This document shows, in pieces, positions 4,922 to 21,899 of a stretch of DNA of 32,000 bases. Under the pieces are notes generated by a model. That model did not search any database, had not been told where the DNA came from, and was given only the letters and a program-made list of their open reading frames with translations. Origin of the DNA: Psychrobacter sp. HD31. GTDB lineage: Bacteria; Pseudomonadota; Gammaproteobacteria; Pseudomonadales; Moraxellaceae. The stretch spans positions 330,001-362,000 of the forward strand of contig NZ_CP142525.1 in NCBI RefSeq assembly GCF_051097895.1. The letters are read 5' to 3'. The translations under genes and the position numbers were made by a program. Position 1 is the first letter of the stretch. Every line of letters starts with the position of its first letter.

Positions 4922-4950
4922 TTGACTATTCTTTTTCTGGTATGTATAGT
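4922..4950 (+). promoter_or_regulatory. Sigma70-like promoter candidate TTGACT-N17-TATAGT
   Basis: Hexamers sit at 4922-4927 and 4945-4950 with a 17-nt spacer, oriented toward the fasciclin gene (start 5150). This would imply a 5' UTR of about 190 nt. Confidence 0.4.
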
Positions 4951-5149
4951 ATATTTATTCTTAGTTATAACGAACTATATTTAATACCTATTGCACTTTA
5001 ATTAGTTTTAAATATTTTTGTTTTAATCATTGTTTTTATAAAACAATAAATTGTTAGCAGGTATCTAAGGATGTTTAAGTTAAATTTAGTTTCGGTATTT
5101 TAAGGAGCTATTTTTATTCATATAAAACTGAATCAAAAAAGGACTGATT

Positions 5150-5734: not shown

Positions 5735-5776
5735 GATTGATGTTTTTTTAGCATTAATTAAGTATACACAATGATT

Positions 5777-5814
5777 GCAAATTGTTGAGCCAAGCTTAGC
5801 AATTTGTGTTTTTT
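5777..5814 (+). terminator. Rho-independent terminator candidate after the fasciclin gene
   Basis: The GCAAATTG ... CAATTTGT stem (one G-U pair) flanks a loop of about 14 nt and is followed by TGTTTTTT. Confidence 0.55.
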
Positions 5815-5847
5815 AAGACGTAGTAGATAAAAATATTAGGTAAAAAA

Positions 5848-6453: not shown

Positions 6454-6615
6454 TAATTAATAACCAGTCAATAAAAGTAATCAAGAATAAGCAACAAGTG
6501 ATAAGTAAAGCAAAACCTAACCAGTAATTGAACCAGTCAAACGTTACGATATTTAATAAACGATATGACTTACAATTACTTAACAAACCAATACTTAGTA
6601 ACAAGTGAGCGACAA

Positions 6616-7431
6616 ATGACCAAACGTATTCTTATTACGGGTGCAACTTCAGGCATTGGTTACCAATTGGTGATTGATTACCTAAATGCGGGTCATTATG
6701 TTTATGCAGTGGGTAGAAACCAAACTGTTTTGCAGCAACTAAAACAGCTCGGGGCTATGATTATCATTGCTGATTTAACCGACCGAAATCAGGCAATTGA
6801 CTCAATACAAAATATGTTGCAACAAACACCATTGGATGTGGTGATATGTTGTGCAGGCATTTGTCAGTATGTTGATATCACTCATATCAATTCTACTCAT
6901 ACTACTAATAGTAGTAACAGTGCCAGTCAAACTATCAATACAATGTCCTCAGCTTCATCAGAGTTATTAGGGTTTGATAGTGCTAAGATAATGGACGTGA
7001 TGAATACCAATTTTGGTACGTTGGTACATACCATTGAAGCAGTATTGCCTTATTTACAGCAATCAAAAGGACGATTGGTTGCACTGGGTTCAGCATCGGC
7101 ATTTGTACCCTTTGTTCGTGCTGAAGCATATGCCAGCTCTAAATCAGCGGTGCATTATCTGATTAAAACCTTACAACTGAGCCTAAAGCCATATGATATA
7201 GACGTGAGTTTGGTGATACCAGGATTTGTTGATACGCCAATGACGGCTCAAAATGATTTTGACATGCCATTTTTGCAGACAGTAGAACAAGCAAGCCAAG
7301 CGATTAGAAAAGGTATCGAAAATGGTGAGGATGTGATTGAGTTTCCAAAAAGGTTGACTGTTCCCTTAAAAACACTTGGCATGTTACCCAATGTAGTTTG
7401 GGAGCGTGTATCGGATAGGTTGAATAAATAA
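6616..7431 (+). CDS. SDR family oxidoreductase (first gene of the lipid-modification operon)
   Basis: The motifs are 'ILITGATSGIGYQL' (TGxxxGxG) and 'YASSKSAVHYL' (YxxxK). I prefer the ATG at 6616 to the track start at 6565. An S/T/N-rich insertion 'HINSTHTTNSSNSASQTINTMSSASS' is present. Confidence 0.85.
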   Translation: MTKRILITGATSGIGYQLVIDYLNAGHYVYAVGRNQTVLQQLKQLGAMIIIADLTDRNQAIDSIQNMLQQTPLDVVICCAGICQYVDITHINSTHTTNSSNSASQTINTMSSASSELLGFDSAKIMDVMNTNFGTLVHTIEAVLPYLQQSKGRLVALGSASAFVPFVRAEAYASSKSAVHYLIKTLQLSLKPYDIDVSLVIPGFVDTPMTAQNDFDMPFLQTVEQASQAIRKGIENGEDVIEFPKRLTVPLKTLGMLPNVVWERVSDRLNK

Positions 7432-7443
7432 TTGAGAATATGC

Positions 7444-9180
7444 ATGAGCAATATAGCAAAAACGACAAACTCATCTAAAAAACGTATCGCCATCATTGGT
7501 TCGGGCATATCAGGGTTAACTTGTGCGCATTATTTGGTAAAAGACCATGATGTCACCATCTTTGAAGCCAATGAGTATTTGGGTGGACATGTGAATACCA
7601 TAGATGTGGAGATTGCTGATACCGTTGGACGGTTTAAAAAGAGCACACACATAGAAACCTCTGCGATTGATACAGGGTTTATTGTGTTTAACGAACGCAC
7701 TTATCCCAATTTTTTTCGCTTGCTTGATGAACTGAATGTCGCATTTCAAAAAACGGACATGAGCTTTTCGGTTAAGAATCCTACTATTAACTTTGAGTAC
7801 AATGGTCATACATTAAACAGTCTGGTATCACAGCGTAAAAATATCTTGAGTCCGTCTTTTTGGCGATTTGCAACAGATATTCTGAGTTTCAATAAGCATA
7901 TCAAACAGCTTAGGCAATCTTATCAACAGCTTGAGCAAACTATACAAGAATTAACCACACAAGTTGCCAACACTAACAGCAAGCGTAAAGTTAAAAATTT
8001 AACCAAGCAACTGACTGCTAAACAAGCAAAGCTAGATGGTTTGTCATCTCAAACACTTGGCGATTATCTAGCCACACAAAAATATGGCAAGTTGTTTGAA
8101 GATAATTATTTGTTGCCAATGGTATCAGCGATTTGGTCGATGGGTCTTGAGGATAGCAAATCTTTTCCACTGATATTTTTTGCTCAGTTTTTTGATAATC
8201 ATGGATTGCTAGATGTGGTTAATCGTCCGCAATGGTTTACGATTCAAGGTGGCTCTAAACAGTATGTCAATAAATTGGTAAAACGCTATGCCAAGATGGG
8301 AGGCAAGGCATTGGTCAATTCACCTGTGCAGTCGGTACAGCGTATGACAGACGGAGTTAGCATTGCTTATCAAGTGAATCAAAACATGGATATTGGCAAG
8401 AACATCAACACGGACTCGGTAGGAAAAGCAACCAAAACTGCTAAGTTTGATGAAGTGATATTTGCCTGTCATGCTGATGTGGCAAAGCGTCTATTAACTG
8501 ATATTAGTGAGCAGGAACAACAGGTATTAGAGGCGTTTAACTTTACGGATAACCAAGCCATTTTGCATACAGATACCAGTGTACTACCAAATAAACCACT
8601 GGCATGGGCGAGCTGGAACTATTTGTTAAACGACTCTTCGAGCAAAGCTAAGATAACTGACGATACAAAAGTAATTGAAGAAACGCATTGTGGTAACTTT
8701 AAACCAGTGCTGACTTATCACATGAATATTTTACAACGACTGGTTAAAAAGCATAACTATTTGGTGACATTAAACGAGCCTGTCAATGAATTACAAGTGA
8801 TTAAACATATTGATTATCGTCATCCTGTATATGATGTCAATATGACCATGGCTCAAAAACGTTGGGAGTATATCTCAGGCGATGCTTCTGTTAATCAGAG
8901 TACGCACTTTGCGGGTGCTTATTGGTTTAACGGTTTTCATGAAGATGGTGTTCGTAGTGCATTACGTGTGTGTGCAAGTCTAGGTGTGAATGTTGATATT
9001 TTGGATAAGGTAGACCCAAGCCATCTAAACAATACGATTGAACCACATCCAATATTCACTTATAAAAATATACCTAGTAAAGCGCATAAAAATAAGGGTG
9101 GCAAAAACCGTGCTAAACTAAATAAACGTCAAGTGCAATCAGCAACGACGAATACCCAGCTAAACCAACTGTTTAGTTAA
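7444..9180 (+). CDS. NAD(P)/FAD-dependent oxidoreductase, amine-oxidase-like (COG2907-type; the family I recall for the UfaD desaturase)
   Basis: The dinucleotide fold is 'RIAIIGSGISGLTCAHYL ... FEANEYLGGH'. Gene order SDR-flavoprotein-DUF1365-CFA-like is typical. The ATG at 7444 is preferred; a TTG at 7432 abuts the SDR stop. It carries a coiled-coil-like insertion and a basic C-terminal tail. Confidence 0.85.
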   Translation: MSNIAKTTNSSKKRIAIIGSGISGLTCAHYLVKDHDVTIFEANEYLGGHVNTIDVEIADTVGRFKKSTHIETSAIDTGFIVFNERTYPNFFRLLDELNVAFQKTDMSFSVKNPTINFEYNGHTLNSLVSQRKNILSPSFWRFATDILSFNKHIKQLRQSYQQLEQTIQELTTQVANTNSKRKVKNLTKQLTAKQAKLDGLSSQTLGDYLATQKYGKLFEDNYLLPMVSAIWSMGLEDSKSFPLIFFAQFFDNHGLLDVVNRPQWFTIQGGSKQYVNKLVKRYAKMGGKALVNSPVQSVQRMTDGVSIAYQVNQNMDIGKNINTDSVGKATKTAKFDEVIFACHADVAKRLLTDISEQEQQVLEAFNFTDNQAILHTDTSVLPNKPLAWASWNYLLNDSSSKAKITDDTKVIEETHCGNFKPVLTYHMNILQRLVKKHNYLVTLNEPVNELQVIKHIDYRHPVYDVNMTMAQKRWEYISGDASVNQSTHFAGAYWFNGFHEDGVRSALRVCASLGVNVDILDKVDPSHLNNTIEPHPIFTYKNIPSKAHKNKGGKNRAKLNKRQVQSATTNTQLNQLFS

Positions 9181-9288
9181 GAACAGTAGCTAAAGAATAA
9201 CAGTATTTAAAGCACTGCTGGCTCACGCATAACGAGAAAAACTAACGGTTTAGTATTTTTGTCAATTTACAATTTTTAAGGATATAAC

Positions 9289-9771
9289 ATGACAGATACC
9301 ATTTATCAATTTAATGCAGACACCTTAACAGGTCAAAACAAAGATTTTAGCGAGTATGCAGGCAAGGTGTTGCTTATTGTTAATACTGCCAGCAAATGTG
9401 GCTTAACGCCTCAATACGAGGGTTTAGAGCAATTACATAAAGACTATCACGACAAAGGACTGGAAGTCATTGGCTTTCCGTGCAATCAATTTGGTCACCA
9501 AGAACCAGGTGATGCAGGTGAAATCACAGAATTTTGCCAACTTAACTATGGTGTCAGCTTTCAGATGATGGATAAAATTGATGTTAATGGTGACAATGCC
9601 CACCCAATTTACAAATGGTTAAAATCCCAAAAAGGTGGATTAATAACCGACGCCATTAAGTGGAACTTTGGTAAATTTTTGGTTGGAAAAGATGGCAAAG
9701 TAGTCAAACGCTATGCACCTACTACCAAGCCAGAAGCCATTGCCAGTGACATTAAAAAGCTGCTTGGCTAA
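9289..9771 (+). CDS. gpx: Glutathione peroxidase (Cys-type)
   Basis: Motifs are 'LIVNTASKCGLTPQY' (peroxidatic Cys), 'GFPCNQFGHQEPG' and 'WNFGKFLV'. SD AAGGA lies 7 nt upstream. Confidence 0.93.
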   Translation: MTDTIYQFNADTLTGQNKDFSEYAGKVLLIVNTASKCGLTPQYEGLEQLHKDYHDKGLEVIGFPCNQFGHQEPGDAGEITEFCQLNYGVSFQMMDKIDVNGDNAHPIYKWLKSQKGGLITDAIKWNFGKFLVGKDGKVVKRYAPTTKPEAIASDIKKLLG

Positions 9772-9798
9772 GTTTTTATCTTAAAAGTATTGAAAACA

Positions 9799-10749
9799 AT
9801 GAAGCCTTTTATCCCCCACCAAATCTTAACAGGTACAACATGGCACGCTCGTCATATGCCTGCTAAGCATAGCTTTAGCTATCCGTATCGCTATTGGGGG
9901 CTAAGTTTAAAACGGTTGGCAAATGGCGATTTTCCACCAGATAGTCATGGTGACAAACTTAAAATAGTTGGTAAGTTGTTTTCTACTCATAAGCGAGCTT
10001 TACATAACTTTGATTTTGCCGATTACTTTGATATCAATAAGCTTGATGAGAGTAATGTAGATAATGCTAAGTATCTAAAGCAGTCCTTAGAATTTTCAGA
10101 CACTCTGCACAAGTGGGATAACAAACAAGGAATAAATCAAGAAGCTAACCAAGAAAAAGCGAAACACTGGTTAGATACGGTGAATCAAGAGTTTATTCGA
10201 CTAACAGGTAGCCAGCCAACAGGGGATATCTTGGCATTGGTGGTCAGTCGAAATTTGGGAGTTTATTTTAGCCCTGTCAATTTTTATATTGGGTTTGATA
10301 AAGCGGGTAATGCCAGTCACCTATTGGCAGAGGTATCAAATACGCCGTGGAATAAACGTCATTTTTATGGTTTTTTGTTAACAGGTAATGATAGTGAATT
10401 TAGTCATAACAAAGACTTTCATGTATCACCATTTAACCCGTTAGACCAAACTTACACATGGAAAGTAAAAGTTTCTGCCCCTAAAGAGAGCTATTTAAAA
10501 AATATCAAACTTAGCATTCATGTTTCGGATGAGCGAGGCAAGGTATTTGAAGCGGGCATTAATATGAAGTCCATGCCGATGACCTCACAAAACTTACGAC
10601 ATACCATTAAACAAAACCCAGTGATGAACTATAGCTCAATGGTTCGGATATATTGGCATGCGTTTCGACTGTATGTAATGAAAAAAGTGCCCTATGTTGG
10701 ATATAACCAAAAGCTAAAAGAGAGCGGGCAAGCAACTTTTAAAAAATAG
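9799..10749 (+). CDS. DUF1365 family protein (the family I recall for UfaO)
   Basis: The N-terminus 'GTTWHARHMPAKHSFSYPYRYWGLSL' fits the DUF1365 pattern H.R..P..H.F.Y. Its position between the flavoprotein and the CFA-synthase-like gene also fits. Start is ATG 9799 or TTG 9790. Confidence 0.82.
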   Translation: MKPFIPHQILTGTTWHARHMPAKHSFSYPYRYWGLSLKRLANGDFPPDSHGDKLKIVGKLFSTHKRALHNFDFADYFDINKLDESNVDNAKYLKQSLEFSDTLHKWDNKQGINQEANQEKAKHWLDTVNQEFIRLTGSQPTGDILALVVSRNLGVYFSPVNFYIGFDKAGNASHLLAEVSNTPWNKRHFYGFLLTGNDSEFSHNKDFHVSPFNPLDQTYTWKVKVSAPKESYLKNIKLSIHVSDERGKVFEAGINMKSMPMTSQNLRHTIKQNPVMNYSSMVRIYWHAFRLYVMKKVPYVGYNQKLKESGQATFKK

Positions 10750-10813
10750 ACAGTAATGAATAGCCAATAGTGCATAGCAAACCGTACATTTAAGAGAAAT
10801 AAGGAGAGGTACA

Positions 10814-12184
10814 ATGTTCAGAAAAAATACCGAACTCGATATTAGCGCATCGACTGCCAGCCAATTACCGACTGACCGCCATACCTCTACTGCTCAATCG
10901 CTGATTGGTGGCAAGCTTTCTAGTGTTCTAAGCCCTGTCAAAAAAGGGGTTGACCTTACCAGCAAACGCCTTGTGTTTAAGGGATTGTCATATTTGCAAT
11001 TTGGCAGTATCACGCTGATAGAAAATTATGGTAAGAAACCTAAAACTCATCTTTTTGGGGAGGGTAATTTAAATGATAGCCAAAGTAAAAAAAATGGAGA
11101 AATTGCTGGTTCACACCCTTTGCATGTGACCTTAACCGTGCATAATCCAAATTTTTATCGACAGTTGATAACAGGTGGGGATATTGCTTTAGCCGATAGT
11201 TATATTGATGGTGAGTGGGAAGCCGATGACCTAACAGCATTAATCCGACTGGCTGCTCGCAATATCAACGTCATGAAGCAACTGCAAAGTAAGTTATCTT
11301 TGCTAACTAAATCCGTTGAATTTAAAAAACATAAAGCCCGTTCAAACACGGTAAGCAAAGCGAAGTCGAATATTCTTGCTCATTATGACCTTGGCAATGA
11401 CATGTATCAAACATTTTTGGATAAGACCATGATGTATTCATCAGCGATTTATCCAACACCAAATACACCATTGCCCGAAGCGCAACAGACTAAGCTAAAA
11501 ACCTTATGTGATATGTTAGAACTCACGCCTGACGACCATTTACTAGAAATTGGGACAGGTTGGGGTGGTTTGGCGATTTTTGCAGTGCAAAACTATGGTT
11601 GTCAAGTGACCACAACCACCATATCTGATGCTCAGTATGATGAGGCAAAACAGCGAGTAGAGCAGGCGGGACTCACGGATAAAATCACCTTGTTAAAAGA
11701 AGACTACCGTAAGCTAACAGGTCAATATGACAAGCTTATTAGTATTGAGATGGTTGAAGCAGTTGGACATGAATATTTACCAACGTTTTTTGCCAAATGC
11801 AATGCGCTGCTAAAACCAAAAGGAATCATGGCGATGCAGGCAATTACCTTTAACGACCAAGGGTATGAAGACTACCTAAACTCGGTGGACTTTATCCAAT
11901 CGCATATTTTCCCTGGTGGTTGTCTGCTATCTAATCAAGAAATCATCAATCAGTTTACTGAGCAAACCGACATGGTGGTAAAGTCGTTGATTGATTATGG
12001 CTATGACTATGCATACACCTTACGGGACTGGCGGCATGCTTTTATGAATCGTTTGGATGATATCCGAGCGATGGGCTATGACGATAAGTTTATCCGCTTA
12101 TGGCAATTTTATTTTGCGTATTCTGAAGGTGGGTTTTTGGAACGAACCATTGGGGTTGTGCAGGTAAAGGCGATTAAAGAATAG
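10814..12184 (+). CDS. Cyclopropane-fatty-acyl-phospholipid synthase family SAM-dependent methyltransferase
   Basis: The SAM motif is 'LLEIGTGWGGLA'. Also present are 'ISIEMVEAVGHEY', 'IFPGG' and 'FYFAYSEGGF'. A strong SD AAGGAGAGG lies upstream. Confidence 0.9.
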   Translation: MFRKNTELDISASTASQLPTDRHTSTAQSLIGGKLSSVLSPVKKGVDLTSKRLVFKGLSYLQFGSITLIENYGKKPKTHLFGEGNLNDSQSKKNGEIAGSHPLHVTLTVHNPNFYRQLITGGDIALADSYIDGEWEADDLTALIRLAARNINVMKQLQSKLSLLTKSVEFKKHKARSNTVSKAKSNILAHYDLGNDMYQTFLDKTMMYSSAIYPTPNTPLPEAQQTKLKTLCDMLELTPDDHLLEIGTGWGGLAIFAVQNYGCQVTTTTISDAQYDEAKQRVEQAGLTDKITLLKEDYRKLTGQYDKLISIEMVEAVGHEYLPTFFAKCNALLKPKGIMAMQAITFNDQGYEDYLNSVDFIQSHIFPGGCLLSNQEIINQFTEQTDMVVKSLIDYGYDYAYTLRDWRHAFMNRLDDIRAMGYDDKFIRLWQFYFAYSEGGFLERTIGVVQVKAIKE

Positions 12185-12228
12185 ATAGTTTGTGTTAGTA
12201 AATATAATTATATGAAAGCGAGAATAAT

Positions 12229-12645
12229 ATGAATCTAGCATATATATGGGTGTACCTGACTGCGGCGACAGTTTTTGTTGTAGTTGATGGTATTTGGCTA
12301 AAAACCATGACCCAGGCGTTTTATCATCCACGCATTGGGCATCTACTCACAGATACGCCAAATATGCTGGCAGCAGCCATGTTTTATCTGTTTTATATCT
12401 TTGCTTTGTGCGTACTGATTATCTATCCACAAGTTAAAGCTCAAGCCCCGCTATGGCAACTGTTTGCTTTAGGGGGATTGATTGGGCTAATGGCATATGG
12501 CACTTATGACTTTACCGCATTGGCACTGTTAAAAGACTATAGCACCTCAGCAGCTTTGGTTGACTTTGTTTGGGGTGGGTTTGTTACAGGGACGGTAGCC
12601 GTAGCTGCCGGCTGGTTAAGTTACCAGTTTGGATGGTTGCAGTAG
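12229..12645 (+). CDS. DUF2177 family membrane protein
   Basis: It is a 138-aa protein with 4 hydrophobic segments. The N-terminus 'VVVDGIWLKTM' resembles DUF2177. It sits in the usual last position of this operon type. Confidence 0.78.
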   Translation: MNLAYIWVYLTAATVFVVVDGIWLKTMTQAFYHPRIGHLLTDTPNMLAAAMFYLFYIFALCVLIIYPQVKAQAPLWQLFALGGLIGLMAYGTYDFTALALLKDYSTSAALVDFVWGGFVTGTVAVAAGWLSYQFGWLQ

Positions 12646-12684
12646 ATAAGACTCACGATAATATAAAGAAAGTTAACTAAAATA

Positions 12685-12720
12685 ATAAGAAACGATATGA
12701 TCGTTTCTTATTTATTATTT
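12685..12720 (+). terminator. Rho-independent terminator candidate after the lipid-modification operon
   Basis: A perfect stem AATAAGAAACGAT / ATCGTTTCTTATT surrounds a 3-nt loop (ATG). A U-rich but A-interrupted tail TTATTATTTATT follows. Confidence 0.6.
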
Positions 12721-12803
12721 ATTGGCTAAAGTACAAAAATAATCAACTTAAATAGGATTGGATCCTAAAGAACTTTAAAGTCTAAGTTATATAAATTTTG
12801 CAC

Positions 12804-12832
12804 TTGAATATAGTTAGCATACGAACTATACT
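12804..12832 (+). promoter_or_regulatory. Sigma70-like promoter TTGAAT-N17-TATACT with an embedded inverted repeat TATAGTT-N8-AACTATA (12809-12830)
   Basis: The hexamers are at 12804-12809 and 12827-12832. The inverted repeat spans the spacer and overlaps the -10, which is the geometry of a repressor operator. It lies about 48 nt upstream of the hotdog gene ATG. Confidence 0.5.
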
Positions 12833-12879
12833 TGTTTTGTAATCTTTTACGATATTGTTAATTATTAAGGAGCGAGTTA

Positions 12880-13323
12880 ATGAATCAAAATTTAAAGTTA
12901 TTTCAATCAATGGGCGCAGATGCTTTTTCACAAGCTGTTGTTAATATTGCACCTTATTTTTCTAGTATAGATCCGCAAGTAGTGGATTTAAGAAAAGGAT
13001 ACTGTGAAGTTTTTTTAAAAAAACAACAAAAAGTTTTAAACCATTTGGGTACTGTACATGCGATTGCAATGTGTAATGCTGCTGAGCTGGTTGGTGGAAT
13101 GGCAACAGATGTTTCTATTCCTGAAGGTGCACGCTGGATTCCTCAAGGGATGACAGTTAAATATCTAGCAAAAGCAAAAACAGACTTAACTGTGGTGTGT
13201 GATGCAAATGATATTGACTTTTCACAAGAAGGCGAGATTGTTGTGCATATTGATGCAACTGATGAAGAAGGTACAGTTTGCTTTACTGCTGATATTAATA
13301 TGAATGTTAAACATGAATCATAA
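12880..13323 (+). CDS. Hotdog-fold thioesterase-like protein (DUF4442 / PaaI-YiiD_C-like)
   Basis: The 147-aa ORF has 'NHLGTVHAIAMCNAAELVGG' and 'GMTVKYLAKAKTDL', typical of DUF4442 hotdog proteins. SD AAGGAG lies upstream. Confidence 0.78.
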   Translation: MNQNLKLFQSMGADAFSQAVVNIAPYFSSIDPQVVDLRKGYCEVFLKKQQKVLNHLGTVHAIAMCNAAELVGGMATDVSIPEGARWIPQGMTVKYLAKAKTDLTVVCDANDIDFSQEGEIVVHIDATDEEGTVCFTADINMNVKHES

Positions 13324-13347
13324 TAATCATTGAAATTTTTAGACTTT

Positions 13348-13384
13348 AAAAAACAAAGATTTAACATGGGTCTTTGTTTTTTTT
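13348..13384 (+). terminator. Rho-independent terminator after the hotdog gene
   Basis: A stem of 10 bp or more, AAAACAAAGA / TCTTTGTTTT, has an 11-nt loop and a T-run extending to 13384. Confidence 0.8.
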
Positions 13385-13482
13385 ACAAGTTGAGCTTATC
13401 GATATGCATGGGTAATATAAATTATTGACAAAACCAAATAATAAAAATTAAACTAAATGCTTTACACAAATTAAGTTTAGTC

Positions 13483-13953
13483 ATGCAAACAGAAGAACTC
13501 AATCCCCTTAACCTTACTAGCAAAAAAAGTAGACATCAAGATAAACGTCTTTTCTTTTTATTCAATATGGCACGCCATCATTTATTTGGCTATGTAGATG
13601 CCGAATGTGATGCACAATTGGGTATTTCGGTTACACAGGCTGGTGCTTTACTCTATATTGCAAAAAAAGAAGGGTGTTATCAAAAAGATTTGGGTGATGC
13701 TTTGGGCTTAAAAAAATCAACAGTCACCGGGTTAGTGTCTCGAATGGAAAAAAATGGCTTGGTTAAACGTAAAGCGTGTAAACAAGATGGTAGGGCATCA
13801 ACATTATTTTTAAGTCAACTTGGTAATGAAATAATCCCACGAATCATACTTTTTATTAAATCTATTAATGATGAGTTTTTATCAGATTTTAGCGATGAAG
13901 AAATGGATGTGATTTTTAAATTTTTAAATAGAATAATAAAAAAATACTCATAA
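13483..13953 (+). CDS. MarR family transcriptional regulator
   Basis: The winged-HTH is 'QKDLGDALGLKKSTVTGLVSRMEKNGLVKRK...DGRAS'. Confidence 0.88.
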   Translation: MQTEELNPLNLTSKKSRHQDKRLFFLFNMARHHLFGYVDAECDAQLGISVTQAGALLYIAKKEGCYQKDLGDALGLKKSTVTGLVSRMEKNGLVKRKACKQDGRASTLFLSQLGNEIIPRIILFIKSINDEFLSDFSDEEMDVIFKFLNRIIKKYS

Positions 13954-14244
13954 TCCGCTATGTGAAAACAAGCTTTTGATTGTGCTAAAAACAAAAAGAG
14001 TTAAATGTAATTTTTGTTATATTTTTAGATAAGTGAGAGTGTCTTGTCTTATCCTGTTTTTAATACATTTTATAAATAAAGCCAGCTTTAAAGTTTGGAG
14101 AAAACGAGTGACGGGTAGACTTGCTAAACATCGACAGCTAGACACTTCAAGAAACCACAGTATCAATCATACCAATAAAGTTCGAAAGATGAAGAACAAA
14201 CCAATACGAAGTACAGCACACAAACGCTTGAGTTACAGCTAAAG

Positions 14245-14484
14245 CTAGTGAAAGCTTAAAATCACTTCCACATCTCTGACGGTTAGTTTTCTAAACAATG
14301 CCTGTTCTTCAACAGGCATTCTGTTTTTATGCTCCTTAATCATCAAATGAACCTCTCGTGCAACCTCAGCAGTTGATGAATAATACAAGTCGGGATTCAG
14401 TTCCATAACCTTGTATAGATAGTCATGGATGATTCGGCGTTTTTTGTCTGCTTCTAGCTCATGATTGTCTTGTTTTGGACTCAT
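14245..14484 (-). CDS. Hypothetical small protein (79 aa)
   Basis: The internal ATG at 14484 is preceded by AGGAA 6 nt upstream, whereas the track start at 14541 lacks an SD. I recognise no family. It is divergent from the COG3046 photolyase-like gene. Confidence 0.5.
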   Translation of the reverse strand: MSPKQDNHELEADKKRRIIHDYLYKVMELNPDLYYSSTAEVAREVHLMIKEHKNRMPVEEQALFRKLTVRDVEVILSFH

Positions 14485-14671
14485 TATTGTTCCTAAATGT
14501 TGATGGTTATATAGTTCTTTGATTAAGGCTACCCAAACCAATTATAAAATGTTACTATCTAGTATAATAATTAACTAATAAGTATTCAATTGCTTGTTGT
14601 ATTAAAACTTAAAGAATATAAAGTGAATAATAACAAGGTTATCATTAGATAAGTCGAATAAGGACCCCCAT

Positions 14672-16297
14672 ATGTCGGAAGCTACGTCCTCGGATACACA
14701 TTCCTTATTTTATAAACGCAAAATCAGCCTTATCTTTCCACATCAGCTGTTTGCTGATGTTAGTCTATGGCAAGATGAATGCTACTTAATAGAAGAAAAT
14801 CTATTTTTTACCCTTTATCCCTTTCATAAACAAAAGCTTGTCTTGCATCGTGCCAGCATGAAAGTCTATGAAAAAAAGCTGATAGAAGCAGGTAAAACCG
14901 TCATTTATATTGATTCAAGCCACAAACACAGCGATTGTCGAAAATTAATCAATAGCTTTGAAATAAAACATGTCGATGACCCTGAACACATCCATTTGAT
15001 TCATTATATTGATGTAGTAGATGATTGGCTGCGTATGCGATTGCAACAAGCATTACTTACAAAAAATATTCGTTTTCGTCCTGCACCAAGTCCCATGTTT
15101 TTAAATCCAATATCGGTATATTGGCAGTTTTTTGCCCCAGATATGAGCCATATAAACCATGTAGACACAGCGAGTAAACCTGTTCAAAAACAACTATTTC
15201 ATCATAATTTTTATATCCAAGCTCGCAAGCGTGAAAGAATTTTATTAACAGAAGACAATAAGCCCATTGGCGGGCAATGGTCGTTTGATGCCGAAAACCG
15301 TAAAAAATACCCACGCAAGCAAACACCGCCCAAAGTCAATTTTCCACCAGTGACAGAGCATTACCAAAATGCAGTGGCGTATATTCAAACCAACTTTGCC
15401 AATCATTATGGCAACATCAATACTGACTTTCGTTATCCTATTAATCATGAGCAAGCAGAACAGTGGTTTGAAGACTTTTTACGTACTCGATTTGCTGACT
15501 TTGGCGTGTATGAAGATGCCATTGTCGATAGTGAAAGCATACTCAACCACAGTGTACTAACACCCATGCTAAACATTGGCTTACTGACACCTGAGCAAGT
15601 TATCAATCGCACATTAGAGGTTGCAGAAGAATATCAGATACCACTAAATTCGCTTGAAGGATTTGTTCGTCAGATTATTGGTTGGCGTGAATTTATGTAT
15701 GGTTTATATGAGTCGGTGGGTAGGCAACAACGCACCACCAATTTTTGGGGCTTTACTCGCAAAATCCCGAAAAGTTTTTATACAGGACAGACGGGTATTG
15801 AACCGATTGATAGCACCATCAAAAAAATTCTTGAAACGGGTTATTGCCACCATATCGAACGCTTGATGGTATTGGGCAATTTTATGTTGTTATGCGAGTT
15901 TGACCCAGATGAGGTGTACCGTTGGTTTATGGAGCTGTTTGTTGATGCCTATGATTGGGTAATGGTACCTAATGTGTATGGTATGAGCCAGTTTGCCGAC
16001 GGTGGTCTAATGGCGACTAAGCCGTATATCAGTGGCAGTAACTACCTTGCGAAGATGAGTAATTATCAAGTTAAATCAAAAGGCGAGTCTGTGGCATGGG
16101 CAAAAACATGGGATGGACTGTTTTGGCGATTTATGCAGGAGCAAAGAGAGTTTTTTGGACAAAACCCTCGCATTGGGATGTTACTAACCCTGTGGGATAA
16201 GATGGATGATAGAAAGCAACAAGCACATTTACAGCAGGCTGAACAGTTTCTAGCAAAATTAGATGCAGAGTTAAGTACTGAACTAAATACAAAATAG
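14672..16297 (+). CDS. Cryptochrome/photolyase family protein of the COG3046 (FeS-BCP / bacterial (6-4) photolyase PhrB-CryB) type, lacking Fe-S ligand cysteines
   Basis: Motifs are 'LIFPHQLF', 'GWREFMYG', 'GYCHHIERLMVLGNF', 'DAYDWVMVPNVYGMSQFADGG' and 'KPYISGSNYLAKMSNY'. SD AAGGA lies upstream. Confidence 0.9.
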   Translation: MSEATSSDTHSLFYKRKISLIFPHQLFADVSLWQDECYLIEENLFFTLYPFHKQKLVLHRASMKVYEKKLIEAGKTVIYIDSSHKHSDCRKLINSFEIKHVDDPEHIHLIHYIDVVDDWLRMRLQQALLTKNIRFRPAPSPMFLNPISVYWQFFAPDMSHINHVDTASKPVQKQLFHHNFYIQARKRERILLTEDNKPIGGQWSFDAENRKKYPRKQTPPKVNFPPVTEHYQNAVAYIQTNFANHYGNINTDFRYPINHEQAEQWFEDFLRTRFADFGVYEDAIVDSESILNHSVLTPMLNIGLLTPEQVINRTLEVAEEYQIPLNSLEGFVRQIIGWREFMYGLYESVGRQQRTTNFWGFTRKIPKSFYTGQTGIEPIDSTIKKILETGYCHHIERLMVLGNFMLLCEFDPDEVYRWFMELFVDAYDWVMVPNVYGMSQFADGGLMATKPYISGSNYLAKMSNYQVKSKGESVAWAKTWDGLFWRFMQEQREFFGQNPRIGMLLTLWDKMDDRKQQAHLQQAEQFLAKLDAELSTELNTK

Positions 16298-16324
16298 CTA
16301 CAGAGCTAAATGAAGAGTTAGCAC

Positions 16325-16699
16325 ATGGATAACAAACCCCAATCATCATCAAAAGACATCCTTTACTACGACAGCGACTGTCCTATTTGTTCTGCTGAAA
16401 TGGATAAGCTGTGTCGGCTAAAACAGGATTCGCTAGAATTGATACCAATCAATCAAATTACCAAAGAAACAGCAGGTGATATTGACGAATCAGAGATTAA
16501 CAACCTGTATGATGAGCTGCATATCCGCACAAGCGATGGCAAGTGGCTAAAAGGCTATGAGGCAAATATCTACGCATGGCAACAAACTAAATATGCACCC
16601 TTTGCTAAATGGCTTGGCAAACCGCCATTGTCTTGGTTTGGGAAGTTGAGCTATCGAATTTGGCTTAAGTGGTATCGGTGGCAACGTAATAAAAGATAA
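16325..16699 (+). CDS. Thiol-disulfide oxidoreductase DCC family protein (DUF393)
   Basis: The N-terminal motif is 'YYDSDCPICSAEMDKL' (DxxCxxC). Confidence 0.85.
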   Translation: MDNKPQSSSKDILYYDSDCPICSAEMDKLCRLKQDSLELIPINQITKETAGDIDESEINNLYDELHIRTSDGKWLKGYEANIYAWQQTKYAPFAKWLGKPPLSWFGKLSYRIWLKWYRWQRNKR

Positions 16700-16734
16700 G
16701 ACACAAATTAAAAATAAAGTAAGGCAATTGTATT

Positions 16735-17589
16735 ATGACAATAACTGAACAACAAATTTTCACCCCCGCTATCATATTTTTTGACATTGACGACACCTTA
16801 AGTCGTGATGGTATTTTAGCCGAGCATAACAAATCCACCTTAGAGCAACTTGCCAAAACCGAAATTAAAGTGGTGATTGCCACGGGGCGGGCTAAGCCTA
16901 TGTTGCCAGAGGACATCATCGACTTGCATGACAGCGGTGTGATAGATGCCATTATCTGTATGAATGGGCAATATTCATTTACCAAAAATGCCCAACAAGA
17001 CCAAAAGATTAAGCATTATCCACTTAGCAAAGCACAAGCCAAGCTGATTGTAGACATTTGCCAACAACAAGACATTATTTATAAGTTTGAATCCACAACA
17101 CACATTGGTTGGTCAGGTAACTCACCAAGGCATGAGCTGTTGCGTAAACTCATCGATGAAAACCATCACTTTATGATTGATCCAGATTTTTATAAAGCCA
17201 ATGATGTGTATCAATGTTCTGTTTTTTTTGAAGGCGATAATGAGCAACTTGCACCAGTTAATTTTGCCGATTATGGATTAAAGCTTGTGCATTGGCATGC
17301 GATGGGAGCAGATATCTTGCCTATAGAAGCATCAAAAGCCAGAGCCGTTAAAGATATTTGTGACTATTACGAGGTATCGCCTGCTGACTGTATGGCATTT
17401 GGCGATGGCAATAATGACATTGAAATGTTTGAGCTAGTCGGTTGTCCTGTGGCGATGGCAGATGGCGCAGAAATATTAAAACAAACGGCTTTAGCTCACA
17501 ATGGTAAAGTAACAGGCTCTATAGAAGAAAACGGCATACAAACGGCATTAACAGAATATGGTGTATTTAATGATGACAGCGGTAATTAA
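16735..17589 (+). CDS. Cof-type HAD-IIB family phosphatase
   Basis: HAD motif I is 'FFDIDDTLS'. Also present are 'VIATGR' and motif IV 'FGDGNNDIEMF'. Confidence 0.9.
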   Translation: MTITEQQIFTPAIIFFDIDDTLSRDGILAEHNKSTLEQLAKTEIKVVIATGRAKPMLPEDIIDLHDSGVIDAIICMNGQYSFTKNAQQDQKIKHYPLSKAQAKLIVDICQQQDIIYKFESTTHIGWSGNSPRHELLRKLIDENHHFMIDPDFYKANDVYQCSVFFEGDNEQLAPVNFADYGLKLVHWHAMGADILPIEASKARAVKDICDYYEVSPADCMAFGDGNNDIEMFELVGCPVAMADGAEILKQTALAHNGKVTGSIEENGIQTALTEYGVFNDDSGN

Positions 17590-17615
17590 CGAACAACTGA
17601 CTAAAAGACCATGAG

Positions 17616-17789
17616 ATGATGAAAAAATCAGGCAGTAATAAGACCATCAAAAAATCTAATTTACCCAGTAAAGTTTGTCCTGTTTGTAAACGCCCCTTCA
17701 CATGGCGTAAAAAATGGCAAAACAATTGGGACGAGGTCGTTTATTGCTCCAAACGCTGTTCGGGTAATAAGCAAGCCATTCATCCATAA
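17616..17789 (+). CDS. DUF2256 zinc-ribbon-like small protein (57 aa; not in the supplied ORF track)
   Basis: I translated it by hand as [57 protein letters not shown]. The 'CPVC..PF.WRKKW...WD.V.YCS.RC' pattern matches DUF2256, a family I recall as frequently adjacent to photolyase genes. Confidence 0.8.
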
Positions 17790-17874
17790 GCGTTAACACT
17801 AAGATAAAAGCGAAGCTCAAACTGAAACTGAAACCTAGATTAAAACCAAACCTAACTCCAAATAAGGCACAGCC

Positions 17875-19332
17875 ATGACCATCTCAAAGTCTAATAAAAC
17901 CATCGGCATGGTCATACTCCATAATGACTTACGCATACATGACAATGCCACTTTGCTAAAAGCATCAACGGTATGCGACAGTTTGCTGATTGTGTATCCA
18001 AAACAAAAGCTGTTTTTGCCCACTCAAAACCGAGGGCAAGAATTTCATGCCAGCCAACATGAAAAAATGGGCAAAGCAAGGGCATGGTTTTTATTGCAAA
18101 GCTTGTCAAACCTTGACAAATCGCTACAACAGCTTGGCAATGGGTTGCTATATCTTGATGCAGAGAAAGCAGGCGTGACAACCTTTAATCAGATTAAAAC
18201 ATTGATTAACGAGTTTAATGTTGGGCATGTTTTTGTCAGTAGTACGGCAGATTATGACCAAAATCAGGGCTACCGTTTACTTGCACAGAACACCAATACT
18301 CAGTGGTATTACGCCACTACTCACAGTATTTATGAGACACGACCAACAGAAACGTTGCCAAAAGTGTTTACTGAGTTTCGTAAATTGGTAGAAAAATCGC
18401 ATCCCTGTTTGACAGCGAAAAATGATTTACTAATTTCGCCCACCCCAAGCGTGTTACCCAGTATGCCAGTGATGGCGGCTAACTATCTAAAAAGTGTGCA
18501 ATTGCCCAAGATTTTGGATGTCGCTAATTCGGATTTCGATAATGCAGATATTGCTGAGCTTGCTGATAATCAATCGATAACATCGCCTTTTATTGGAGGC
18601 GAACATCAAGCATTGGCACATTTACAAAGCTATTTTCAGTCGGATGCTCCGAAAACTTATAAAGAAACCCGCAATACCTTATTTTTAAACGATGATACGA
18701 CAACGCAAGCGTCATGGTCACAGACAACACGCTTTGCACCTTGGCTTGCCAATGGGTCGCTATCCGTACGAGTGTTACTCAACCGATTAAGGCAGTATGA
18801 GCGTGAAAAAGTGGCGAACGATTCGACTTATTGGATTTGGTTTGAACTACTTTGGCGAGAGTATTTTTATTGGTATGCCAATACGCACGGTAAAAAGCTG
18901 TTTCGTATGCGTGGCATAAGTGGCAAACCCTCTCGCAAGTGCTTTTATGGCGAACGCTACGAACGTTGGAAAAATGGCAGTACCCCTTATCCAATTGTGA
19001 ATGCTTGTATGAAGCAATTAAAAGCCACTGGCTATATGTCTAACCGTGGGCGACAGCTCGTTGCCAGCTGTTTTATTCATGAGCTTGGTTTGGATTGGCG
19101 GTATGGCGCAAGTTATTTTGAACAACAGCTGATTGATTATGATGTGGCGAGTAATTGGGGCAATTGGCAATATTTAGCAGGCGTGGGAGCAGACCCACGA
19201 GGCTCTCGTAAATTTAATCTTGATAAGCAAACGCAACAGTATGACCCAGAGGGTAAGTTCATTAAAAAATGGGGCGGTAATGACGATGCCACTGTGCTTG
19301 ATAGTGTGGACATGGTGGACTGGTATGTTTAA
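17875..19332 (+). CDS. Cryptochrome DASH
   Basis: Motifs are 'TRFAPWLANGSLSVR', 'WFELLWREYFYW', 'YPIVNACMKQLKATGYMSNRGRQLVASCF' and 'DYDVASNWGNWQYLAGVG'. Confidence 0.92.
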   Translation: MTISKSNKTIGMVILHNDLRIHDNATLLKASTVCDSLLIVYPKQKLFLPTQNRGQEFHASQHEKMGKARAWFLLQSLSNLDKSLQQLGNGLLYLDAEKAGVTTFNQIKTLINEFNVGHVFVSSTADYDQNQGYRLLAQNTNTQWYYATTHSIYETRPTETLPKVFTEFRKLVEKSHPCLTAKNDLLISPTPSVLPSMPVMAANYLKSVQLPKILDVANSDFDNADIAELADNQSITSPFIGGEHQALAHLQSYFQSDAPKTYKETRNTLFLNDDTTTQASWSQTTRFAPWLANGSLSVRVLLNRLRQYEREKVANDSTYWIWFELLWREYFYWYANTHGKKLFRMRGISGKPSRKCFYGERYERWKNGSTPYPIVNACMKQLKATGYMSNRGRQLVASCFIHELGLDWRYGASYFEQQLIDYDVASNWGNWQYLAGVGADPRGSRKFNLDKQTQQYDPEGKFIKKWGGNDDATVLDSVDMVDWYV

Positions 19333-19384
19333 TTATGTTGAATTAAAGTGCTAAATTTGCATATTGAATGAGGATATAAAAATA

Positions 19385-19852
19385 ATGAAAAAGACGGCAA
19401 CAACGCAAAAAATATTATTCCCTTATTTAACCTTGGCAGGGGCAACTCCGTTTATTGTCTGTATGTTTTTACTGCTCTTTGGCTTAAACCATCTGCCATA
19501 TTTGGGAGAAACGACTCAAGTATTAAGGGGGTACGGCATACTTATCGCTTCATTTATGTTGGGTAGCCAATGGGGGAGTCACTTAAGCCTATCAGAAAAT
19601 AATCCATGGTTACTTCGATTGCCTATTTTTACCAATATCATGGCAGTTTTACTATGGTTGGCATATTTGGTTTTATCTGTTGATGTCTTTTTATTGCTTT
19701 TATCTGTATGTTTTTTAGCAATTTTATTTATTGATTACCACCTAAAGCAAGCCAAAATAATTGGGCGAAATTATTATCGCATTCGAGTAATAGTAACAAT
19801 GATTGTGGTTGCATCATTACTTGTGAGTGCTTTAACACTTTTTTTATTTTAA
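19385..19852 (+). CDS. DUF3429 family membrane protein
   Basis: It has four hydrophobic segments and 'YGILIASFMLGSQWG', matching the DUF3429 signature (YG..I.SF.GG..WG). The ATG at 19385 has GAGGA upstream; the track uses a TTG at 19364. Confidence 0.8.
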   Translation: MKKTATTQKILFPYLTLAGATPFIVCMFLLLFGLNHLPYLGETTQVLRGYGILIASFMLGSQWGSHLSLSENNPWLLRLPIFTNIMAVLLWLAYLVLSVDVFLLLLSVCFLAILFIDYHLKQAKIIGRNYYRIRVIVTMIVVASLLVSALTLFLF

Positions 19853-19898
19853 TCGTTTGTACTTAATTTTAGAAATTTGAATTCTCTAGGAAACTATT

Positions 19899-21062
19899 AT
19901 GACATCACAAAAAATTGCCATCATCGGTGCAGGTATTGCAGGATTAACCGTTGCTCATCGCTTACAGACTCTGCCCAATGTGCAAATTACCCTGTTTGAA
20001 AAAGCCAGAGGCGTCAGTGGTCGAACCTCCACACGCCGAGCAGAACCTCATCACTTTGACCATGGTGCTCCATTCTTTATTGCAAAATCTGATGAATTTC
20101 AAACCTTTATTAACCCTATGCTAGAGGCAGGCGTATTAAGCGATTGGCAAGCCAAAGTAGCTGAAGTATCTGGCACACAAGTGACTGACCAATATCAATG
20201 GCAAGCCAATCGATACTTTGTCGCTCAACCAAAAATGAACGAAATGGCGAAGTTTATCGCCAAACAACTGACAAATAATGTAGAAATAAAGCTGGGTACA
20301 AGAGTCGGCAAGATAGAAAAAGTCGATTTAGACGTTGAAAACTTAGAGCATTCACAGGACACAAACGCTGAGACTCAACATAGTACACAAGATAGTAGTC
20401 AACAGTGGCAGTTGACCAGCGATACAGGCGCTAAAGTCAATAAAGCAATCGGCACACCATTAGCATTAGGTGAACAAGGCGACTTGGGTAATTTTGATTG
20501 GGTAATTTGTACCGCTCCTCCCGAACAGGCAGTTGAACTCATTCCAAGCAGTTTGCCTTTTTATCCTCGTATTGAACAAAGTAAAACCGATGGTTGCTAT
20601 GCCTTAATGTTAGGGTTTGACACGCCACTAGATATTAATTTTGATGTGGCATTAATCAAAGATTCTGCTTTAAGTCGCATCGTTGTAAATAGCCAAAAAC
20701 CCATGCGACCTGATGCCTATTCCTTGACCATTTTATCCAGTAATCAATGGGCAGAACAGCACATAGATGCAGACCAAGAATGGGTTAAATCTGAATTACT
20801 CAAAGCCACTAGTGATGTCTTAAAAATTGAGCCAGAAAAGCTACAACAAGCAACGCATATGGGCATGCACCGCTGGCGTTATGCCAATACTAGCCCTGAG
20901 CTTGAGCAATATAATCAAAATCAATCCGCCTACTTATTAGATACCGAGGCACAACTTGGCGTTGCTGGCGACTGGCTTATTAAAGGCAGTGTGGAAAATG
21001 CGTTTAGGAGTGGGGATGCGTTGGCAAATAGCCTGATTAAAGCACTGGCTGATTCACAATAA
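19899..21062 (+). CDS. NAD(P)/FAD-dependent oxidoreductase (COG3380-like)
   Basis: The dinucleotide fold is 'KIAIIGAGIAGLTVAHRL ... FEKARGVSGR'. The C-terminus has 'GVAGDW'. An acidic/Q-rich insertion 'DVENLEHSQDTNAETQHSTQDSSQQ' is present. Confidence 0.85.
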   Translation: MTSQKIAIIGAGIAGLTVAHRLQTLPNVQITLFEKARGVSGRTSTRRAEPHHFDHGAPFFIAKSDEFQTFINPMLEAGVLSDWQAKVAEVSGTQVTDQYQWQANRYFVAQPKMNEMAKFIAKQLTNNVEIKLGTRVGKIEKVDLDVENLEHSQDTNAETQHSTQDSSQQWQLTSDTGAKVNKAIGTPLALGEQGDLGNFDWVICTAPPEQAVELIPSSLPFYPRIEQSKTDGCYALMLGFDTPLDINFDVALIKDSALSRIVVNSQKPMRPDAYSLTILSSNQWAEQHIDADQEWVKSELLKATSDVLKIEPEKLQQATHMGMHRWRYANTSPELEQYNQNQSAYLLDTEAQLGVAGDWLIKGSVENAFRSGDALANSLIKALADSQ

Positions 21063-21087
21063 CTGATAATAGAGGAATCTGTTCGTT

Positions 21088-21810
21088 ATGAAAAACATCG
21101 CTATTTTTGGCAGTACAGGAGCAATTGGACAAGCCATCACTGATGAGCTAGCAAACCGTTATCCCAATGCTCACATTCATGCCATTTCTCGCTCAGCTCC
21201 AACTGGTAATTTAACCAAAGATAATATCAGTCATCATCAAATTGACTTGCAAGATGAAGAATCTCTAAAACAGCTGGCAAGACAAATTACCAATGAGCAC
21301 AAATTAGACTATGTGTTTGTTGCCACAGGAACTTTGCATAATGACGGGGTACAACCAGAAAAATCGTTACGCCAGTTGTCAATGCGTAACTTTGAACAGC
21401 TGTTTGCGGTGAATACCATTTTACCTGCCATTATCGCTAAGCATTTTATACCCAAGTTAAGTAAAGAAAGTAAGTCAGTTTTTGCGGTGTTGTCGGCTCG
21501 GGTCGGCAGTATCTCGGATAATCGTTTGGGTGGCTGGTATGCCTATCGTGCATCAAAATCAGCACTAAATATGATAGTCAAAACGGCAAGTATCGAAACC
21601 AAACGAAGTAATCCAAACGCCATTCTCGTTGGTCTGCATCCAGGTACGGTGGACAGTGAGTTGTCCAAACCCTTTCAAAAAAATGTACCCGAAGGTAAAC
21701 TTTTCACTGCCGAGTTCTCAGCTAAATCGTTAATTGCGGTGACTGATAAATTAGCCAGTGAAGACTCGGGCAAGTGTTTTGATTGGGCTGAGGTTGAGGT
21801 AGGGGCTTGA
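21088..21810 (+). CDS. SDR family oxidoreductase (CsgA/C-factor-like subgroup)
   Basis: Motifs are 'IAIFGSTGAIGQAI' and 'YRASKSALNM' (YxxxK). SD GAGGAA lies upstream. Confidence 0.88.
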   Translation: MKNIAIFGSTGAIGQAITDELANRYPNAHIHAISRSAPTGNLTKDNISHHQIDLQDEESLKQLARQITNEHKLDYVFVATGTLHNDGVQPEKSLRQLSMRNFEQLFAVNTILPAIIAKHFIPKLSKESKSVFAVLSARVGSISDNRLGGWYAYRASKSALNMIVKTASIETKRSNPNAILVGLHPGTVDSELSKPFQKNVPEGKLFTAEFSAKSLIAVTDKLASEDSGKCFDWAEVEVGA

Positions 21811-21864: not shown

Positions 21865-21899
21865 AAAAATAAGGTTGTAACTGCACAACCTTATTTTTT
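21865..21899. terminator. Bidirectional rho-independent terminator between convergent genes
   Basis: The stem AAAATAAGGTTGT / ACAACCTTATTTT has a 6-nt loop AACTGC. An A-run on one side and a T-run on the other let it serve both the SDR (+) and the permease (-). Confidence 0.85.

Follow-up and report, generated by a model that had tools for sequence, protein, structure and literature searches.

A 32,000-nucleotide (nt) stretch of the Psychrobacter sp. HD31 genome (contig NZ_CP142525.1), hereafter the window, carries at 14672..16297 on the forward strand an open reading frame (ORF) of 541 residues, whose product is probably a functional prokaryotic (6-4) photolyase of a naturally cluster-less type ('subgroup M', the type represented by PromaPL). 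None of the four Cys residues that hold the [4Fe-4S] cluster in the characterised relatives is found in the protein, referred to below as the query, and the residues that have replaced them recur throughout a large clade. Its most likely role, as predicted from sequence, would be photorepair of (6-4) lesions dependent on flavin adenine dinucleotide (FAD) and Mg2+. We checked the translation of the ORF and located the following features:

14672..16297, + strand: gene of the 541-residue protein, a probable cluster-less prokaryotic (6-4) photolyase of the subgroup-M type (ORF, Pfam, PDB matches, AlphaFold2 model, Foldseek)
14729..15424, + strand: N-terminal alpha/beta (DPRP, antenna) domain, residues 20-251 (Pfam DPRP)
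15287..15289, + strand: codon of D206, corresponding to the Mg2+-site Asp D179 of PhrB (WSFDAENR aligned to PhrB WNFDAENR)
15515..15517, + strand: codon of D282, corresponding to the second Mg2+-site Asp, D254 of PhrB (EDAI aligned to PhrB QDAM)
15803..15805, + strand: codon of P378, in the column of the first Fe-S ligand, PhrB C350 (MAFFT; invariant in alignment A1, described below)
15848..15853, + strand: codons of H393-H394, corresponding to PhrB H365/H366, with the catalytic His of the HHIxRLM helix (in all aligned sequences)
16067..16126, + strand: former cluster segment, residues 466-485, with the clade-specific motif W476-x3-W480-D-G-L-F-W485 (alignment, conservation, pLDDT 77-95)

A preliminary description of the window had assigned the protein to the COG3046/prokaryotic (6-4) photolyase family, and Pfam, PDB sequence, profile and Foldseek matches agree with this assignment. 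The COG3046 motifs quoted there were all found in the translation (GWREFMYG at residue 337, HHIERLMVLGNF at 393, NVYGMSQFADGG at 434, YISGSNYLAKMSNY at 452 and QVKSKGESVAWAKTWDGLFWRF at 466). Pfam detected DPRP (PF04244, 4e-42, residues 20-251) and FAD_binding_7 (PF03441, 5e-08), and the protein has the two-domain architecture of a DPRP-type alpha/beta N-terminal domain and a helical FAD-binding domain. The PDB sequence search returned 8ijy, 7ykn, 9hnk, 3zxs and 4dja, all of which are prokaryotic (6-4) photolyases, at E values of 1e-73 to 1e-84, the best single-sequence match being SePhrB (8ijy, 1.6e-84); the next photolyase class, class III (4u63), appeared at just 3.5e-05. In a profile search, characterised prokaryotic (6-4) photolyases were matched at 1e-95 to 1e-110.

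An AlphaFold2 (AF2) model was built without cofactor on a 51-sequence alignment (A1), the members of which are 56-90% identical to the query. The model had a mean predicted local distance difference test score (pLDDT) of 86 and a predicted template modelling score of 0.88. When it was compared with the PDB by Foldseek, PhrB (4dja) ranked first, with template modelling (TM) scores of 0.84/0.89 across the whole length; the top 11 matches were exclusively prokaryotic (6-4) photolyases (TM 0.78-0.89), and other classes reached TM values of about 0.5. All of these 11 structures carry the [4Fe-4S] cluster, and no cluster-less member with a solved structure turned up in this Foldseek search of the PDB. 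The query thus shares its fold with PhrB (4DJA), CryB (3ZXS), Vc(6-4)PL (7YKN/8A1H) and Cc(6-4)PL (9HNK) at an identity of just 27-33% over the aligned structures.

The ligand columns were read in HMMER pairwise alignments to CryB (3zxs) and the enzymes of Vibrio cholerae (7ykn), Caulobacter (9hnk) and Synechococcus (8ijy), and in a MAFFT alignment with PhrB (4dja, residues 248-507), CryB, Vc, Cc and Se, which agrees with the HMMER alignments. In the MAFFT alignment, PhrB C350 corresponds to P378, C438 to Q466, C441 to a gap and C454 to K478. The preliminary description had proposed an alignment with PhrB, CryB and the V. cholerae enzyme as a check on its claim that the canonical cluster cannot be held, and this alignment places Cys in zero of the four ligand columns. 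As the columns read P, Q, gap and K, we infer from the sequence that the query is unable to bind the canonical [4Fe-4S] cluster, and we regard this prediction as safe. No replacement set of Cys, His or Asp was present at the ligand positions in the MAFFT alignment. The query accordingly falls outside the FeS-BCPs in the strict sense, which have four ligand Cys (PhrB C350/C438/C441/C454). The protein contains exactly four Cys, namely C37 (DECYL), C89 (SDCRK), C392 (GYCHH) and C408 (LLCEF), as had been counted previously; none lies beyond residue 408, leaving the last 133 residues free of Cys.

The same absence extends to the relatives of the query. All of the 120 best homologs in a collection of 5.8 billion proteins are Cys-less and have the motifs 'TGIxPxD' and 'W...WDGLFW' in common; their named sources include Psychrobacter, Marinicella, Saprospiraceae, Eudoraea, Maribacter, Flexithrix, Cyclobacteriaceae and Chitinophagales. 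Among the nearest 150 cluster representatives at 50% identity, 148 are Cys-less, and CxxC...C was detected in P0250 and P0255 only. Relatives occur in at least 593 species-representative genomes (593 of the 600 pattern matches listed). The best 80 of these, which we inspected, are 53-70% identical to the query and belong mostly to Bacteroidota, the others being Psychrobacter, Glaciecola, Rhodothermales, Ignavibacterium, Pyrinomonadaceae, Kiritimatiellales and Leptospiraceae, so that at least five phyla are represented among the best 80 loci. The closest named relatives are from Psychrobacter spp. (~70% identical), and the nearest relative, on a Logan contig (locus L082), encodes a photolyase 89% identical to the query. 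In a neighbour-joining tree of the C-terminal domain, the seven Fe-S-type sequences group together to the exclusion of all 139 Cys-less sequences, a separation that fits an ancient divergence better than a recent loss.

A cluster-less class has also been described in the literature. Ma et al. stated that ~30% of the FeS-BCP group lack the four Cys and expressed PromaPL of Prochlorococcus as a Cys-less representative, which repaired (6-4) lesions in single-stranded DNA (ssDNA) and required Mg2+ (10.1101/366252). Chen et al. (2022) divided 110 prokaryotic (6-4) photolyases into seven subgroups and proposed to classify FeS-BCPs as one subtype within the 'prokaryotic 6-4 photolyases'; the Cys-less subgroup 'M', defined by the absence of the four Cys, comprises 20 members from multiple lineages (PMC9178010). 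The query, a Pro6-4 family member lacking all four ligand Cys, falls within this definition. The cluster-less Prochlorococcus protein mentioned in the preliminary description is therefore on record as PromaPL (10.1101/366252; PMC9178010). By contrast, the view expressed there that such proteins are rare is contradicted by the 120 of 120 homologs, the 148 of 150 representatives, the at least 593 species genomes, the ~30% of Ma et al. and the 20 of 110 sequences that Chen et al. placed in subgroup M. The Cys-less clade is a published and large subgroup, of which the query is an expected member.

In the query, the former cluster site consists of Pro378, a shortened version of the CxxC-carrying loop (Q466, gap) and a conserved Trp-rich motif (W476...W480-D-G-L-F-W485). 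P378, W476, W480, D481 and W485 are invariant in the 51 sequences of A1. Across the 148 Cys-less representatives, the replacement residues are P378 in 128, D380 in 134, W476 in 132 and D481 in 122 cases. Since the substitutions are fixed clade-wide, the loss of Cys is no effect of chance or of sequencing, and judging from this conservation the replacement residues are under selection. The AF2 model of this region has pLDDT values of 96 (residues 371-380), 77 (461-470), 88 (471-480) and 95 (481-490). Relative to the Bacteroidota majority, the query has an insertion of 7-8 residues in the former cluster loop (QVKSKGESVA), and insertions in the N-terminal domain account for its length of 541 residues versus about 495-507. 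A lone Cys directly after the W476 equivalent, adjoining the Cys4 column, was observed in 50 of 125 diverse Cys-less representatives (P0122-P0259) and could be a remnant of the fourth ligand. In close relatives of the query, this position is Gln (75/120) or, as in the query itself, Ala (36/120).

The residues expected for (6-4) repair are retained. Relative to PhrB, the MAFFT alignment equates H393/H394 with H365/H366, L398 with L370, Y452 with Y424 and Y458 with Y430; that is, the query possesses the family's catalytic His (PhrB H366), the Leu (L370) in place of the second eukaryotic His, and both Tyr residues (Tyr424 and Tyr430). His is present at position 393 in 140 and at position 394 in 145 of the 148 Cys-less representatives. 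D206 and D282 conserve the two Asp residues, D179 and D254 of PhrB, that Ma et al. assigned to the Mg2+ site (10.1101/366252). PhrB, CryB, Vc(6-4)PL, Cc(6-4)PL and the query are alike in the HHIxRLM helix and in the equivalents of L370, Y424, Y430, D179, D254 and W390, the last being the medial Trp of the electron-transfer path (W418 in the query). The four characterised enzymes have a [4Fe-4S] cluster, whereas the query has no ligands for it and differs from them by E403->M431, Y391->F419 and W342->Y370. Subgroups A, B and G typically have the chain W342-W390-Y391 and a Glu near flavin N5, for which the query has Y370, W418, F419 and, at the N5-proximal position of PhrB E403, M431. In the remaining (non-ABG) subgroups, a Met lies near flavin N5 and no intact Trp/Tyr chain is present (Chen et al. 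2022, PMC9178010); the Y370/F419/M431 changes are exactly this pattern. Compared by described traits, PromaPL/subgroup M and the query both belong to the PhrB/CryB family, lack the Fe-S Cys, have Met for Glu at N5 and no intact PhrB-type Trp/Tyr chain, and keep both Mg2+-site Asp; subgroup M comes from multiple bacterial lineages, and the query from a Psychrobacter-like gammaproteobacterium. SePhrB of Synechococcus elongatus (8IJY, subgroup HC) resembles the query in the Met near N5 and the Phe at the Y391 position, and unlike the query it has four Cys with the cluster, bound 8-hydroxy-5-deazaflavin (8-HDF) and a retained W338 (PMC9178010).

The N-terminal domain differs from the Fe-S enzymes at the pocket for the antenna 6,7-dimethyl-8-ribityllumazine (DMRL). 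E41, L44, F51, H52, K55, H59, R60 and M63 are invariant in A1, and the profile alignment places the invariant H59 (His59-Arg60) at PhrB I51. In 5kcm, a structure of the PhrB I51W mutant, the aligned sequence departs from that of 4dja at exactly the I51 position, and the I51W substitution reportedly removes the DMRL antenna. The DMRL-type D-loop, YVGH (YVxH), is LYPF in the query and QYxF in the clade. Given His at the I51 position and the LYPF D-loop, the antenna of the 541-residue photolyase is probably not DMRL. The pocket (14789..14860, residues about 40-63) is unlike both the DMRL and the 8-HDF type.

The photolyase gene heads a run of eight co-directional ORFs, including that for cry-DASH, as had been pointed out previously. 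The run extends from 14672 to 21810 with gaps of 25-85 nt and is followed by a terminator-like hairpin:

14672..16297, + strand: cluster-less photolyase, first of the eight ORFs; 27 nt to the next
16325..16699, + strand: DCC1-like thiol-disulfide oxidoreductase (DUF393; Pfam PF04134, 7e-13); 35 nt to the next
16735..17589, + strand: Cof-type HAD-IIB phosphatase (Pfam Hydrolase_3, 2e-42; TIGR00099 above cut-off); 26 nt to the next
17616..17789, + strand: DUF2256 protein, 57 residues (Pfam PF10013, 2e-21); 85 nt to the next
17875..19332, + strand: cry-DASH (TIGR02765, 456.6 bits, cut-off 317; Pfam DNA_photolyase and FAD_binding_7); 31 nt to the next
19364..19852, + strand: DUF3429 membrane protein (Pfam); 46 nt to the next
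19899..21062, + strand: FAD/NAD-binding amine-oxidase-like oxidoreductase (Pfam); 25 nt to the next
21088..21810, + strand: short-chain dehydrogenase/reductase (SDR; Pfam), last of the eight ORFs
21865..21898, no strand: terminator-like hairpin with a 15-bp stem and A/T runs at its flanks (terminator scan), at the end of the co-directional unit

From this spacing, the photolyase is probably co-expressed with the DCC1-type oxidoreductase, the Cof-type phosphatase, DUF2256, cry-DASH and three more genes. The photolyase-HAD pair is kept in all six Psychrobacter-type loci (L001-L006), and in L082 the gene order is photolyase, a 290-residue gene, DCC1, an 88-residue gene and HAD. The Cof-type HAD matches a YcsE-related riboflavin-metabolism phosphatase model well under the cut-off (73 vs 220 bits); a role in supplying a flavin or lumazine (antenna) precursor is conceivable. 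In 23 of 81 related loci the gene is directly preceded by a further photolyase gene in the same orientation, and the flavobacterial locus L049 carries in a row DUF2256, cry-DASH, a cluster-less photolyase gene and a cyclobutane pyrimidine dimer (CPD) photolyase. Such photolyase-rich neighbourhoods lend support to a repair role. In addition, many Bacteroidota loci (L007, L015, L018, L020, L021, L032, L046 and others) contain, about 1.3-1.8 kb 5' of the photolyase gene, matches of ~170 residues to the C-terminal half of cry-DASH/CPD photolyase, which may represent short photolyase-like (SPL/NewPHL) genes.

Another recurrent neighbour is the DUF2256 mini-protein (PF10013), which in the window and in loci L007-L080 and L084-L154 has 45-57 residues and four Cys in a CxxC...WRKKW...CxxxC pattern. 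In 48 of 79 related loci the DUF2256 gene ends 0-30 nt ahead of the start codon of the Cys-less photolyase, and overlap of the two genes is frequent; in the window it sits directly upstream of cry-DASH. For comparison, we collected 80 metagenomic loci with an Fe-S-type profile, 76 of which encode the CxxC...C motif; in 18 of the 80 there is a DUF2256 gene, in many cases immediately next to the photolyase stop. We considered whether DUF2256 stands in for the lost Cys in trans, and does so only in Cys-less enzymes; the 18 Fe-S-type loci (of 80) in which it is adjacent speak against this. The association is therefore one with the family as a whole and does not depend on loss of the cluster. DUF2256 matches the YacG and Rad50 zinc-hook models weakly, below threshold, and from these patterns it looks like a family-wide, zinc-ribbon-like partner of prokaryotic (6-4) photolyases. 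A full-text literature search returned no functional study of DUF2256.

If the protein is a (6-4) photolyase, FAD would be bound in the C-terminal domain and reduced to FADH-, from which blue or near-UV light would drive electron transfer to the flipped-out pyrimidine(6-4)pyrimidone lesion. His394 would take part in proton transfer and Mg2+ would stabilise lesion binding, as in PhrB, and the Fe-S cluster would be dispensable for the repair chemistry. M431, Phe419 and the H59 pocket, which mirror the non-ABG subgroups, suggest that flavin photoreduction might follow a different route and that the antenna would be other than DMRL. What the [4Fe-4S] cluster does in prokaryotic (6-4) photolyases continues to be called elusive (PMC12082625), and natural cluster-less members offer the obvious comparison; considered alongside the conserved replacement motif, a well-behaved enzyme from a gammaproteobacterial lineage that is culturable and cold-adapted could reveal what stabilises the fold in the cluster's absence and whether repair becomes less efficient.

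Several points weigh against this assignment. PromaPL repaired at 0.012 per min versus 405 per min for PhrB (RAE), a roughly 30,000-fold lower rate, and its preparation was ~10% pure (10.1101/366252). Since the sole tested Cys-less member was impure and barely active, robust (6-4) repair by the class is not established. In the query, two of the three PhrB electron-transfer residues (W342 and Y391) are altered. The query is grouped with PromaPL by traits that the two have in common, not by a tree, and its repair role, like that of its close relatives, is a prediction from sequence and model. Finally, co-transcription of the eight-gene unit is plausible on the basis of spacing only. It is attractive to speculate that the Cys-less clade is a mechanistically distinct type, characterised by a Trp plug, the Met-N5 contact, no PhrB-type chain and a non-DMRL antenna, maybe with DUF2256 as a lesion-recognition or recruitment subunit. 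We consider this unlikely; were it the case, the Psychrobacter-type enzyme could be a tractable representative, unlike PromaPL.

Loss of the cluster and of the electron-transfer residues could instead mark a switch to signalling, the protein being a cryptochrome-like light sensor or regulator as proposed for Rhodobacter CryB. CryB affects gene expression, as cited in PMC9178010, and a sensor would fit the replacement of PhrB W342 and Y391, the very low activity of PromaPL (10.1101/366252), an operon that holds oxidoreductases instead of repair genes, and the BLUF gene nearby in Psychrobacter sp. M13. However, CryB is also a (6-4) photolyase, the query has neither an output domain nor a C-terminal extension, the gene often stands in tandem with other photolyase genes, and the His-His pair, Tyr452/Tyr458 and the Mg2+-site Asp show almost no variation across hundreds of diverse sequences, which together leave a sensor an improbable reading. 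Marginally less probable still is a photolyase for another substrate (lesions in ssDNA or RNA only, Dewar isomers or CPDs), in which the rebuilt C-terminal region and DUF2256 would shift recognition. PromaPL was assayed on ssDNA only (10.1101/366252), the operon is shared with cry-DASH, an ssDNA CPD photolyase type, coupling to DUF2256, a possible nucleic-acid-binding Zn ribbon, is tight, and the loop 442-451 by the lesion site was modelled at low confidence. Nevertheless, the lesion-pocket residues common with PhrB are conserved, and DUF2256 is also linked to Fe-S-type (6-4) repair enzymes, i.e., it is no mark specific to the Cys-less type.

It is very unlikely that a metal or cluster is bound through non-canonical ligands, either the protein's own C392 and C408 or, in trans, those of the four-Cys DUF2256. 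Close relatives conserve both C392 and C408, the four-Cys mini-protein is encoded in the operon and beside most relatives, and the lone Cys next to the Cys4 column in 50/125 diverse representatives could be invoked as well. Yet the two residues lie away from the former cluster site, where the ligand columns read P, Q, gap and K, and across the wider Cys-less group Ala prevails at position 392 (51 Ala vs 31 Cys) and position 408 is Cys in just 81 of 148; we rejected C392/C408 as an alternative site for this lack of conservation. DUF2256, for its part, has a Zn-ribbon pattern and is linked to Fe-S-type photolyases too. Hardly credible is a decaying, non-functional copy that has lost its cofactor site. 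All four ligands are gone, and PromaPL was poorly expressed with very low activity (10.1101/366252), but the reading frame is intact, the AF2 model is confident, a replacement motif is found clade-wide, 110 positions are invariant in the 51 sequences of A1, and the type spans at least five phyla among the best 80 related loci. Purifying selection this strong points to a working protein. A cluster-less (6-4) photolyase thus remains the reading that we prefer. No Fe-S-type (6-4) photolyase copy is visible within the 32,000-nt window.

Upstream of the eight-gene unit, further genes complete a ~20-kb photoprotection island (2057..21810) with three photolyase/cryptochrome-family genes, i.e., one of the CPD type by best match, the cluster-less (6-4) gene and cry-DASH:

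2057..3739, + strand: classical-type photolyase, 560 residues (Pfam DNA_photolyase and FAD_binding_7)
4184..4873, - strand: TetR
5150..5734: fasciclin
5848..6453: lipocalin
6565..7431: SDR, in the upstream part of the island
7432..9180: amine oxidase
9289..9771: glutathione peroxidase
9790..10749: DUF1365
10814..12184: cyclopropane-fatty-acid (CFA) synthase
12229..12645: DUF2177
12880..13323: DUF4442
13483..13953: MarR
14245..14484, - strand: divergent ORF of 79 residues with no family match

The best NCBIfam match of the gene at 2057..3739 was PRK10674, deoxyribodipyrimidine photo-lyase (E. coli-type CPD), at 177.4 bits, below the cut-off of 506. Directly 5' of it, at the window's left edge, lies an ORF with ketoreductase (KR) and phosphopantetheine-binding domains (18..1907, + strand), which resembles a fragment of a polyketide or polyunsaturated-fatty-acid synthase. 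Acting together, the three enzymes of the island would cover CPDs in double- and single-stranded DNA as well as (6-4) lesions.

SDR, amine oxidase, DUF1365, CFA synthase, DUF2177, glutathione peroxidase and lipocalin are the gene set of singlet-oxygen/ChrR regulons elsewhere. The island itself encodes TetR and MarR regulators, and a ChrR-type promoter is absent. We searched the window with the ChrR/RpoE2 promoter TGATCC-N16-CGTAAT, taken from PMC4336711; the single exact match lies within a coding region and matches with three mismatches are scattered. As promoter matches were found upstream of no operon, the idea that the ChrR/RpoE2 singlet-oxygen sigma factor drives the island was rejected for the window. 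A search for an operator or promoter motif shared across the intergenic regions of the island revealed nothing convincing 5' of the photolyase gene. A weak shared pair, ACGAACTATA / TTGCACTTnAAT, was found upstream of the fasciclin and DUF4442 genes, both elements being common to the TetR-fasciclin (4960..5000) and DUF2177-DUF4442 (12795..12835) intergenic regions; they are candidate operator sites for the TetR or MarR of the island. TATAGTT-N8-AACTATA is also present in the DUF2177-DUF4442 region (12795..12835).

Immediately 5' of the photolyase gene, no inverted repeat was found in 14480-14675. The divergent 79-residue ORF is 68% identical to a gene at the same position in L082, and between it and the photolyase gene a 46-nt block (about 14544..14589) is 100% identical to L082, with diverged flanks. 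Promoter-like hexamers on both strands overlap this block, which is probably a shared divergent promoter or operator.

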